Shown here piece by piece: positions 45,001 to 48,000 of a stretch of DNA of 54,848 nucleotides. Position 1 is the stretch's first letter; each line of letters starts with the position of its first letter. Made by a program: the position numbers. This DNA is from a virus (lineage: Duplodnaviria > Caudoviricetes). The stretch covers positions 1-54,848 of IMG/VR virus record IMGVR_UViG_3300031603_000004. One strand, written 5' to 3'.

Positions 45001-48000
45001 AAATCTTGGTGAACAAGTCCGCTGTTTAACGATTATTCTACATAGTGGAGCTACTGAGAATTGAACTCAGATTAATGATTTGCAAAACCAACGTAATACC
45101 ATTATACTATAACCCCATGATGACTCGATTATTTTACTTGATCGTCCACACAAGATATTTCATCATATCCCTGCTTCACGAACCTCCTGACCAAGTTAAA
45201 ATATAAAGTAATCTAATCCAATGACTTCTCGGTGATTAGCTTTCATGATTTGCAATAAAGTCCATTATTCCATTTATTGTCTCTAAACCATAAGCAACCT
45301 ATTCAATTCTCAAACCAGTATTGGAACCCTGACAATGGTCTTGAGGATTACTTTATATTCCAAATTAAATTGAAAAGCAAGTTGATCTTTTTTTAAGTAG
45401 TGATAATACTTGCGGGGAGATCATTACGTTAAAATGATATACCTGAAGAAAAATGTCTACTAACGTTTAGAGCCTCTTGAAGGAATCAAACCTTCTCTCT
45501 CAGTTTAACAAACTGACGCGCTTGTCATTAAGTTTAAGAGGCGTAAAAAGGGTGGACGGTGGGTAACGATCCCACTTAAACTTATTCCACAAATAAGTGC
45601 ATAACCTTTCTGCCACGAACACCATAAATAAAAACTTTATTTATTAGTTACAATTAGGTTTTACAATTCCCATTTACCTAAGTCTATCATAAATAAAGTA
45701 ATCGCGAGTCTAGGAATCAAACCCAGTCTTAGTCCTTATATGGGTAGTTTAATTGCTGTTAAAGTCTCACTAGACTTATTTCTTAATCGTGCTATCATTA
45801 CACTAACTCGCATTGAAAAAAACTAGACACAAAACCCTTTTTCTAACCCAGAATTGGTTTAATCTGGACTGCGATTTAACACAGTTTTATACACCAAAAG
45901 TTTTTATTGAGTGTTTGTTGCTGTACGTGTCTAAAGCCTTTTATCCGGTTCGAACGGATGACATTTTGCTTACAAGGCAAATGCTCTACCAACTGAGCTA
46001 AAAAGGCAAAATACTACTTTCTATGTTTATCAAACTCTTCTTTGAATAATTCAATAAACGCTTTTTTATCTTTTTTGTGTAAGCGTTTAAGCTTTCCATG
46101 TAAACTTGAAGCTTCTCTTCCTTTTATCCAGTTAGACCAATTATTAGAAGTTACTTCCTCACTATTGATATAAAGATAAAAATCTTGTGGGTTCCCGACT
46201 ACTGAATAGTGAGGTTTCTTGTTCCAACTACCTATTTCAACTTTCATAATTTGTTACCCCTTACTTAATTATACCAAATTATTCTTTTTATGTCAAGTCT
46301 TTTATCAAGTCCCAATTATTTGGTTTCTTATTCATAATTCTAATCAAATCATTTTCATCATACATCTTGTAATCGTTAAACTCAAGATTTACATTAAACA
46401 TCTTTCCAGTTAAAATATTAGGAAGTAAGTTTTTTTCATGACCATTTGCATGATGATGCCCAAACAACTGCCAAGCACCTCTAAAACTTTGATTCCAAGT
46501 AAGCATTGGATAATGACACATCACTATTCTTTGCTTTCCAATCTCTGTAGTTATATGTGTTTCCATAATGAAATCTAATTTGTTAGTAAATTGTTTATAG
46601 TGATTTAACACTTTCTTATCGTGATTTCCAATTATCCAATTGAAATTAACTTTCTTTGGTAGTTCTCTGAACAGCCTATCAATTGCAGGAGATGGATGAA
46701 ATCCTAAATCTCCCAAGAAGAATATTTCATCTCCTTTTTTAACAGTATCTAATACCATATCTACAATCTTTTTATCCATCTCCTCAACGTCCTTAAATGG
46801 ACGATTGGAGAATTTGATGACATTTTCGTGACCAATATGGAAATCACTTGAAAAATACTTCATTTTAATCCCCTTATTGAAAATTTTGAGACCTGAGGGA
46901 ATCGAACCCAAATGCCGCCACTACGAATATTGATGGCAAGGCGTTTACAGCGCCCCTCGTAGAACAGATCCCATAAATAAAAAAACTAGACACATTTAAC
47001 ATTAAAAATTTACAAGTTTTTCGTTTTAGTTGCTGTTAGTGTCTAAACGACTCTACTGGGAATCGAACCCAGATTTTTTGATAGACAGTCAAAAATCTTA
47101 ACCATTAGACCATAGAGCCAAAATATCAGGGTTCTTATTTATACTAGAGTCCTGAATTGCCTCCAGTGAAAGTTGCTGATTACAGTTTACTTTCAAAATG
47201 CGAGTAGCCGGAGTCGAACCGGCGATCTCATATTCCCAAAATATGTCGGTTAGCCACTACCGTATACTCACATAAAACTCGACACGTTTTTTTAATGCTA
47301 CCGCTACACCATACGGAAGACCAACTCCGTAGTAGGATTCGAACCTACGCCTATAAATTTCAATTTTATTTTTTTTAGTTGCTGTTCGTGTCTAATGGTC
47401 TATACCGAGTGTTGGAATCGAACCAACTACATTTTGTATGTAAGACAAAATTTCTTCCAGTGAATTAACTCGGCTTGATTTGCTATCTTGTTATTGAATA
47501 ACCTTATATACTATTATACAATATTATTCTTTTTTTGTCAAGATTTAACTTAACCAAGCATAGCAAAAGTATGTTGAGAAATCTATAATCATATAAACTC
47601 CTTAGAGCGAATGGAGGTAGTCGAAACCTCATCTTCTGGGTGGAAGCCAGGAGTAATAGCCGTTATACGACATTCGCATAAAATGAAACCCTTCCCTATA
47701 AATTGACTATCATAAGACAGTCTCCTTCTTTTTGTAAAAGATCAAAAAAAATCCCTTCCGTATTTTGGAAGGGATGCTATTATACTACTATTGTAATATA
47801 TTTAACGCATACCCATTCCTTTGGCTGTATAATCAAAGCCATTTACCGGAGTCGTATTCATAATATGTTCTGGTCTAAAATTCTTCTTCATGTTATTATC
47901 TTAACACCTTACAAATAAAGTGTTATTTACTCCTCTTCCTCTTCTTCATCTTCCTCTTCTTCATCGAACCATTCTCGTTCGTATTCTATATATGACTTTA

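Follow-up and report, generated by a model that had tools for sequence, protein, structure and literature searches.

The question raised by positions 45812..45702 (minus strand) of IMG/VR virus record IMGVR_UViG_3300031603_000004 is what kind of RNA is encoded by a sequence that has the acceptor stem and the elbow arms of a tRNA and that carries, at the anticodon-stem position, a hairpin followed by the motif ACAGCAA, an element repeated elsewhere in the same DNA. The full record of 54,848 bases, referred to here as the window, was analysed; it covers ~23% of the estimated genome and thus represents a fragment of a large phage. An initial annotation of this sequence had interpreted the element, designated here as H, as a circular permutation of a second RNA, at 47278, with which it would share a family stem. 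Ro60 and Y RNAs are conserved from bacteria to humans, and we know of no established purpose for the tRNA-like part of bacterial Y RNAs. H is shown below to be a real, conserved member of a widespread, unannotated class, and we favour, with a probability of roughly 0.55, the interpretation that it is a stable, tRNA-shaped Y-like RNA whose handle (the hairpin and the adjoining motif) binds a phage-encoded, Ro60-like DUF2828 protein.

A native-order tRNA body bearing a handle

H is located within a tRNA cluster on the minus strand of the window, for which ARAGORN returned 23 calls and Rfam 21 tRNA matches at the gathering score. The 111-nt RNA, which was delineated by a covariance model match and an orthologue (both described below), possesses an open acceptor end and a Y-like handle at the anticodon-stem position. 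Its acceptor 5' strand (45806..45812) forms seven pairs with positions 45703-45709, the first of which is U.G, and is followed by a two-base linker and a D arm (45789..45803) composed of a 4 bp stem and a 7-nt loop, AAUGAUA, which lacks GG; both assignments are based on the fold and on the covariance model. The D and T stems are separated by 62 nt. This interval includes the handle stem P1 (45762..45777), a hairpin of the form AAGUCU-AGUG-AGACUU with 6 bp and a 4-nt loop that was recognized by folding and covariation, then the two bases UA and, as located by motif scan, ACAGCAA (45753..45759). The remaining stretch up to the T arm (45727..45752) can be reconstructed as a weak anticodon-arm look-alike, with a 2-bp stem, a CAUAUAA loop and A33. 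The T arm (45710..45726; 5-bp stem, loop UUUGAUU) is apparent from the sequence and the model, and the RNA terminates with the acceptor 3' strand (45703-45709) and discriminator A at 45702 (together 45702..45709), without an encoded CCA.

These assignments bear out the initial annotation in its placement of acceptor, D and T arms at 45702-45812, here resolved on the minus strand, and of an anticodon region of ~60 nt containing AAGTCT-AGTG-AGACTT and then ACAGCAA (hairpin 45777-45762, motif 45759-45753). When H is compared with a tRNA, the 7-bp acceptor stem, its free ends and the discriminator base are present, and this stem covaries in the class. Both elbow arms are present as well; their loops are atypical, but the two changes match each other. 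What H lacks is a contiguous 5-bp anticodon stem with a 7-nt loop and U33: its best anticodon-arm reconstruction requires a 40-nt deletion and yields four of five stem pairs and A33. Neither ARAGORN (0 of its 23 calls) nor Rfam (0 of its 21 matches) reported a tRNA on H, and nothing was obtained at E values of up to 10.

The handle occurs in three formats within the window

The motif ACAGCAA is present 24 times in the window, compared with 6.7 expected occurrences and a maximum of 12 in 100 shuffles. The longer word AGACRYNNACAGCAA (AGACRY-NN-ACAGCAA) was found in six copies, all on the minus strand, with no occurrence on the plus strand of the window and none of a reversed control pattern. 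The family consensus consists of UAGACAC, two bases, ACAGCAA(C), a variable body, GUGUCUAG and a U run, and at least eight copies of the handle element were identified.

The members other than H, designated A through to G, are all encoded on the minus strand. Member A (47394..47278) is permuted and YrlA-like: its handle 5' strand and ACAGCAA precede the T arm, after which an acceptor stem capped with a 6-nt loop leads to the D arm and, finally, to the handle 3' strand. The others are free-standing: B (47045..46986) and E (35993..35923) lie directly (one or two bases) 3' of tRNA-Asp and tRNA-Ile(UAU), respectively; C (45933..45823) begins one base 3' of tRNA-Thr and ends with a U run four bases ahead of the start of H; D is located at 44142..44010; and F (27324..27281), which has its own TTGACA/TATAAT-like promoter just upstream, and G (27271..27201), ~30 nt upstream of the DUF2828 gene, precede the Ro-like gene. 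The tRNA-Thr(UGU) gene (45935..46007, minus strand; ARAGORN and Rfam) is the first gene of a likely transcription unit, and a promoter-like sequence, TTGACA-17-TATAAT (46268..46296, minus strand; 12/12 positions, with TG; identified by consensus match only), is located upstream of tRNA-Thr, C and H.

RNAfold predicted a terminal stem that closes each of A, B, C, D, E and G, and P1 of H represents the counterpart of this stem. H runs from the acceptor 5' strand through the D arm, the loop-closed handle stem, ACAGCAA and the T arm to the acceptor 3' strand, which is an exact circular permutation of A, as the initial annotation had stated. The Rfam YrlA model (RF02553) gave no match on H at E values of up to 10 and a weak match on the permuted copy (47273-47366; 17.9 bits, E 3.7), compared with a gathering score of 69. 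H is the native-order counterpart, i.e. the inverse permutation, of YrlA, because the same handle is present on plain RNAs and on permuted YrlA-like RNAs.

The positions of the free-standing copies also bear on the possibility that the handle is a cutting or termination signal for tRNA-cluster transcripts, formed by a stem and a U run and acted upon by a host RNase, with an incidental presence in H. Such copies set in one or two bases downstream of a tRNA 3' end and close with a stem plus U run, and H itself starts four bases after a U run of this kind. In H-type RNAs, however, the handle is a closed hairpin with no U run behind it; moreover, a plain terminator would need neither the asymmetric ACAGCAA motif nor the conserved GUC/GAC core of P1, and it would leave the tight linkage to the Ro-like gene, described below, unexplained. 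This explanation is accordingly regarded as improbable.

H-type RNAs constitute a widespread class

To place H among related RNAs, the family was collected outside the window as 241 loci among the matches listed by two IMG/VR pattern scans, eight of which correspond to pieces of the window itself. A script identified at least 471 modules in at least 174 of these loci, 442 with an open stem and 29 with a hairpin stem; the stem sequences vary between copies with pairing kept (e.g. in L044 and L027). TRNA-shaped members were called strictly, with 7/7 acceptor pairs, a T arm and a D arm being required. At least 83 were obtained, comprising 43 permuted RNAs like A and 40 native-order RNAs like H, so that both layouts postulated by the initial annotation recur (at least 43 and at least 40 times, respectively).

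A covariance model, R1, was built from five native-order RNAs of other phages, with no window sequence included. Its top match in the window was H (55.4 bits, E 3.1e-13, model positions 1-117), compared with 45.6 bits for the best ordinary tRNA. When applied to 38 sources, the model returned 61 matches at E values of up to 1e-9, of which 55, from 27 sources, were 95-144 nt in length. In the alignment of these matches, 97.9% of pairing cells were occupied by pairs, compared with 63.2% after shuffling and 40-44% when partners were slid, and both-sided changes were observed in all seven modelled P1 pairs (56 distinct sequences). The handle stem therefore covaries across the class, consistent with the shared family stem that had initially been proposed. 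ACAGCAA was invariant in alignments A2 and A3; the motif variants that retain the GCAA core were mostly ACAGCAA, alongside GCAGCAA, ACUGCAA, ACCGCAA, UCAGCAA and ACGGCAA, and the GUC/GAC core of P1 was kept across the class. A BLAST comparison of an H-type RNA with GenBank phages produced no full-length match, with only the 3' tRNA part being matched.

Most relatives possess a normal-looking anticodon stem-loop, next to which the handle emerges, either from the 5' strand of the anticodon stem or from the loop. The 5' strand of the anticodon stem is often split, with its first 0-7 bases located behind the D arm and the remainder behind the handle. The earlier description of a handle in place of the anticodon arm thus applies to the window copy and to its orthologue, but not to most relatives, in which an anticodon stem-loop is present beside the handle.

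Several further features of the class were recorded. The first two anticodon-stem pairs are very often C-G and G-C, regardless of the anticodon, in many H-type and permuted members, and the handle usually departs right after them, which resembles a conserved junction feature. A subgroup (e.g. L015, L197, L214, L120, L143, L187 and L451) displays, at the anticodon position, a loop that includes AGG, a purine and A in succession, often without U33, which resembles a Shine-Dalgarno word. Three or four H-type genes occur in tandem at L185 10101-10768, L038 6262-7656, L187 10563-10932 and L081 289-1805. Vibrio phage CZ01 (L451, PV740454.1 95500-102600) encodes three H-type RNAs together with several free or permuted modules; ARAGORN identified 18 tRNAs in this stretch, for which the record carries no tRNA annotation and places small 'hypothetical protein' frames over them. 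The three H-type genes occupy 99789-99901, 101686-101803 and 101821-101941 on the minus strand of this phage, whose DUF2828 protein is CZ01_174. In Klebsiella phage KP2025 (L437 3878-4309, PP919962.1 140087-140518), an annotated 432-nt 'tRNA-Arg-TCT' overlaps the start of a DUF2828 gene, and a weak 130-nt R1 match is present at 141961-142090; the 432-nt call may be an artefact, or else reflect a tRNA-like gene, split or interrupted, that adjoins the Ro-like gene.

Conservation of H in an orthologous locus

A megablast search with positions 44000-48000 revealed no match among GenBank phages, and the neighbouring phosphoesterase showed a maximum identity of 44% in IMG/VR and of 50% in metagenome contigs (L258). 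As no closer phage relatives were found, conservation of this particular gene was assessed with a single orthologue, in L258. A D-arm pattern scan returned 114 distinct places, mostly ordinary tRNAs and including seven long ones; a clear H-type RNA was observed in L258 and the window only. In L258, as in the window, tRNA-Thr(UGU) is followed by a free module, after which comes an H-type RNA (54.2 bits), and the ACAGCAA motif is retained, so that the non-conservation in relatives which would have counted against the element was not observed; the homologue search, likewise suggested initially, yielded both the R1 class and this orthologue.

Comparison of L258 with the window revealed six compensatory, both-sided changes (one acceptor pair, two T-stem pairs and three P1 pairs), in addition to one-sided changes with pairing intact in one acceptor pair and one T-stem pair. 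In the L258 acceptor stem, pair 1 is U-A and pair 3 is U-A where the window has C-G. The D arm is nearly identical in both, with a D loop of AAUGGCA in L258, the T loop of which (UUCAAAU) is canonical. L258 thus carries the usual GG in its D loop and C as the third base of its T loop, in place of which GA and U are found in the window; a tertiary elbow contact, G-C in L258, appears to be replaced by A-U in the window, if D-loop/T-loop pairing is read as in tRNAs generally. Between ACAGCAA and the T arm, the sequences of the two loci differ, and a canonical anticodon arm is present in neither. Because this stretch is variable and non-canonical in both orthologues, the sequence comparison indicates that selection in this lineage keeps the elbow, the acceptor end and the handle, and not a decoder.

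These data also bear on whether H is a dead tRNA gene into which a repeated, possibly mobile element was inserted by chance and which has no function. The window copy has non-canonical D and T loops and lacks an anticodon arm, tRNA finders make no call on it, and the window contains at least eight copies of the element, all of which would suit decay. Conversely, L258 retains all four helices by way of the six both-sided compensatory changes and the matched change in the D-loop/T-loop contact, the same design, with strong covariation, was recovered 55 times from 27 sources, and all copies have the same orientation as the tRNA genes. Decay is therefore considered highly improbable.

Genomic linkage of the handle motif with a Ro60-like protein

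The proposed partner of the handle is a 493-aa protein with DUF2828 and DUF7788 domains (25690..27171, minus strand), for which Pfam, AlphaFold2 and Foldseek point to a Ro60-like ring and a vWA domain. Although a search against PDB sequences gave no match for this protein, its AlphaFold2 model (30 homologues, pLDDT 84.6) retrieved Ro60/TROVE chains as all ten best Foldseek matches, over ~510-580 columns, with vWA domains further down. The top matches, 9kop and 9l5y (Thermus phage phiLo), 1yvr and 2nvo, had E values of 1.7e-9 to 1e-6 and TM scores of 0.44-0.59, the two phiLo Ro60 structures being matched at 1.7e-9 to 6e-8. The window protein is thus predicted to fold like Ro60, with a helical-repeat ring followed by a vWA domain.

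Motif and protein were also found to be linked across genomes. Of 45 large motif-bearing contigs, 37 contained DUF7788, as did 18 of the 20 that are at least 90% complete, and its gene often lies within a few kb of the motif locus. A tblastn search with the protein matched 705 of 50,697 GenBank phage records, which serves as a rough baseline and not as a matched control; DUF2828 is a large family, with more than 7,900 sequences scored in one search. In the window, the two free modules F and G are situated directly upstream of the DUF2828 gene and on the same strand. Similarly, Listeria phage A511 carries three free modules in tandem directly upstream of its DUF2828 homologue gp178, with a tRNA cluster before this region and genes for an HD hydrolase, RtcB, an RNA ligase and a phosphoesterase after it, and the window carries the same gene set. 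Some mycobacteriophage homologues are annotated as 'Ro-like RNA binding protein'. The shared handle module, the Ro60-like fold and the linkage between motif and protein together suggest that H is a Y-RNA-like partner of a phage Ro60 homologue.

The RNA-repair genes of the window include an Rnl2-like RNA ligase within the tRNA cluster (36441..37403, minus strand), a CCA-adding enzyme and an RtcB that spans two reading frames (48660..50214, minus strand; 49687-50214 and 48660-49448). The first of these frames covers RtcB profile positions 13-153 and the second 154-425, with ~240 nt between them, and this split could represent an intron, a frameshift or a broken gene. The RNA_ligase domain was detected in 32 of the 45 motif-bearing contigs, with scores over the cut-off in 24, and a distance of ~1.5 kb to the Ro-like gene is common. 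The two genes lie ~1.2-1.9 kb apart in G012, G017, G018, G023, G032, G039 and G043 and look like a conserved pair.

From these data we infer how H would be produced and bound, how it would persist and what its tRNA body would contribute. H would probably be transcribed from the promoter at 46296..46268 jointly with tRNA-Thr and module C, and would be released by tRNA end-processing enzymes, CCA being added afterwards. The acceptor stem, D arm and T arm would form a tRNA elbow with a free acceptor end, from which P1 and the single-stranded ACAGCAA would project at the anticodon-stem position and bind the Ro60-like DUF2828 protein. The tRNA body may protect the RNA and/or recruit the Ro-like protein to tRNA-acting enzymes or nucleases, and it may thus serve as a tether, gate or bait within the RNA-repair and quality-control set of the phage.

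Relationship to known Y RNAs

Published Y RNAs offer the nearest comparison (Chen et al. 2014, PMC4201824; and PMC12135203). YrlA RNAs are described as tRNA mimics on a Ro60-binding stem (PMC4201824), and known Y RNAs as having a terminal stem that flanks an internal loop with a CGAA-type motif and as being encoded beside Ro60 (PMC4201824, PMC12135203). The handle follows the same design with a different motif: in place of the GNCGAA(N)G motif that is reported near the 5' end of YrlA (PMC4201824), it has ACAGCAA with GCAA-core variants. YrlA (RF02553), which occurs in bacteria and mycobacteriophages, and H have in common a tRNA elbow attached to a stem, close to which lies a conserved, purine-rich single-stranded motif. 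YrlA is encoded near a Ro60-type gene, often with several RNAs per locus and additional simpler, YrlB-like RNAs (PMC4201824); in the window, the Ro60-like gene is on the strand of H at a distance of 19 kb, with two free-standing modules directly upstream of it.

With respect to layout, the T arm of YrlA precedes the D arm, its acceptor-like stem is closed by a loop, and its ends form the open, protein-binding handle, whereas H has native order, an open acceptor and a closed handle; the 47394..47278 RNA conforms to the YrlA layout and H does not. H differs further in that its proposed partner is of the DUF2828/DUF7788 type and in that most of its relatives additionally carry a full anticodon stem-loop. 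A precedent comes from Mycobacterium smegmatis, in which RNase P cleaves YrlA and CCA is added to it in vivo while it is in complex with Rsr (PMC4201824). The cut, Rsr-bound RNA has an open 7-bp acceptor stem with CCA, which is the shape that H would have; it consists, however, of two pieces from a permuted precursor, whereas H would be a single chain without an acceptor-loop cut.

The D-like and T-like arms of Deinococcus radiodurans Yrn1 are, as in H, in native order relative to the RNA ends, and the article on YrlA notes that YrlA and Yrn1 differ in orientation (PMC4201824). The two ends of Yrn1 form its Ro-binding helix, which occupies the acceptor position, whereas the acceptor of H is free and its handle is located at the anticodon-stem position. 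Thermus phage phiLo provides the closest parallel for the protein, as it encodes a Ro60 homologue with the Y-like RNAs Yrl1 and Yrl2 just upstream (PMC12135203), and its Ro60 structures 9kop and 9l5y are the best structural matches of the window protein, at a sequence identity of 16-17%. In the portion consulted, Yrl1 and Yrl2 are described as stem-bulge-stem RNAs with a CGAA motif, and not as tRNA-shaped (PMC12135203).

The literature search returned no description of native-order handle-bearing tRNA-like RNAs; a published supplementary list of 22 phage YrlA RNAs lay outside this search and might include relatives of the permuted type.

Y-like RNA or interrupted tRNA gene

The anticodon stem-loop that adjoins the handle in most relatives raises the question of whether the handle might be an excisable insert. 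H-type RNAs would then be pre-tRNAs interrupted in the 5' strand or the loop of the anticodon stem, and the permuted type would represent permuted pre-tRNAs with one half of this insert at each end. The handle would be recognized by a nuclease, which would cut both junctions, the Ro-like protein perhaps acting as a guide or chaperone; an Rnl2-like or RtcB ligase would close the nick, held by the 3' strand of the anticodon stem; and RNase P, 3' trimming and CCA addition would complete maturation. We regard this as unlikely for H, although it is the alternative that merits most attention, and the more specific proposition, namely that the handle is a new protein-recognized tRNA intron, common to interrupted and permuted phage tRNA genes, removed with the help of DUF2828 and sealed by a ligase, is deemed more doubtful still.

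In-silico removal of the module restores a perfect 5-bp anticodon stem with a 7-nt loop, U33 and purine 37 in 48 of the 83 members listed, compared with 1.3% of shuffled controls and 19.7% of controls in which the true 3' part was combined with a random 5' piece. The outcome that the initial annotation had named as contrary to its proposal, i.e. removal of an insert leaving a normal tRNA, thus holds on paper for these 48 relatives, but neither for the window copy nor for its orthologue. Excision would also suit the split points at positions 0-7 in both layouts, the acceptor-closing linkers of the permuted type, which often start with the discriminator and CCA, the 85% identity over 41 nt between the 3' part of one H-type RNA and a T-even phage tRNA-Asn, and the tandem arrangement of up to four H-type genes (e.g. 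L185 and L038). RtcB, an Rnl2-like ligase and a CCA-adding enzyme are encoded in the window, and the frequency and position of the RNA_ligase domain in motif-bearing contigs may be counted on the same side; this domain is nevertheless compatible with both interpretations.

On the other hand, no canonical anticodon arm is obtained from the window copy or the L258 orthologue, so that excision fits the window copy poorly. The split point is variable, which implies that there is no fixed splice site, and the handle also stands alone beside the Ro-like gene, where there is nothing to splice. RtcB was detected in only four of the 45 motif-bearing contigs and in one of the 20 near-complete ones, by which it was ruled out as a general partner, and the splicing endonuclease family PF01974 had no matches in the 54.8-kb record, which represents ~23% of the genome.

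Redundancy of anticodons is also at chance level: among 31 module-bearing look-alikes, eight duplicate a standard tRNA of the same locus, compared with 7.1 at random, and 15 of 318 standard tRNAs duplicate an anticodon. The idea that these look-alikes fill gaps in the tRNA set was ruled out on the same figures (8/31 versus 7.1 expected). Vibrio phage CZ01 possesses a module-bearing Asn(GUU) beside two standard ones, as well as another member with an 8-nt loop. Furthermore, a CCA is encoded after five of 55 H-type RNAs and after 53 of 130 standard tRNAs from the same sources, as judged by a lenient test. The redundancy, the CZ01 Asn(GUU) and the rarity of encoded CCA speak against a plain decoding role.

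Bulge-helix-bulge introns of archaea, like the permuted and intron-bearing tRNA genes of the red alga Cyanidioschyzon merolae, depend on an EndA/Sen endonuclease and a bulge-helix-bulge motif. They resemble the present system in that introns and permuted gene ends are marked by a single element, and they differ in that no EndA/Sen-type enzyme was found in the window and in that the element here is a Y-like module. No interrupted or permuted tRNA genes of this kind were found in the literature for bacterial viruses.

Several observations weigh against the favoured interpretation of H as a Y-like RNA bound by the Ro60-like protein. The restored anticodon arms in 48 of the 83 relatives are accompanied by diverse anticodons and, in our own reading, by G37 in three Pro(UGG) loops, and such tRNA detail seems to exceed what a scaffold needs and fits a spliced precursor. 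H and the Ro60-like gene are on the same strand, but 19 kb apart and not adjoining, and DUF7788 was not seen in eight of the 45 motif-bearing contigs, two of which are near-complete. The handle motif differs from the GNCGAA motif of known Y RNAs, and a second handle helix, expected between the P1 flanks, was dropped as a candidate since its value (4.46) was not above that of the shuffled control (4.11). The fold energy of H is ordinary (z -1.77), with 12 of 200 shuffles folding equally well in single-sequence folding, so that the single sequence by itself proves little; its fold does retain the acceptor, D stem and hairpin. Finally, alignment A4 was fitted to the model, by which its pair counts lean towards the structure, and for this reason the slid-partner controls represent the fairer comparison.

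Further elements of the window

Other tRNA-like sequences were noted on the minus strand of the window. A 106-nt element at positions 34520-34625 (R1, 19.8 bits) combines a 7-bp acceptor-like stem with a canonical T arm but lacks both a D arm and an anticodon arm; it may be another kind of tRNA-like RNA. Long, weak R1 matches without ACAGCAA are present at 42051-42163 (113 nt) and 44468-44578 (111 nt), the latter being overlapped by a weak Rfam tRNA match (24.7 bits). At 44329-44397, ARAGORN reported a 'tRNA-???' with a two-base anticodon, which scores 46.8 bits with the Rfam tRNA model and has a loop that is seemingly one base short. In addition, a reading frame with Hint/intein splicing domains (32466-33002, minus strand) and frames of HNH and NUMOD3-like homing endonucleases (27993-28628 and 43275-43895) indicate mobile elements in and around the tRNA cluster.

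Implications

H represents a new topology, in which a complete native-order tRNA body with a free acceptor end bears a Y-type handle on its anticodon stem. One handle is consequently encountered in three formats, i.e. alone, on a permuted tRNA and on a native-order tRNA, and the large DUF2828 family becomes tied both to Ro60 and to a defined RNA motif. These genes were all missed by standard annotation pipelines. Should the handle prove to be an intron, which for the class would be far more novel than a Y-like RNA, it would constitute the first case of enzyme-driven tRNA splicing and of permuted-tRNA maturation in bacterial viruses, and bacterial Y RNAs such as YrlA would seem to be descended from permuted pre-tRNAs. 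As the RNAs are present in cultured phages (Vibrio phage CZ01 and Listeria phage A511), their binding, processing and possible splicing are directly testable.

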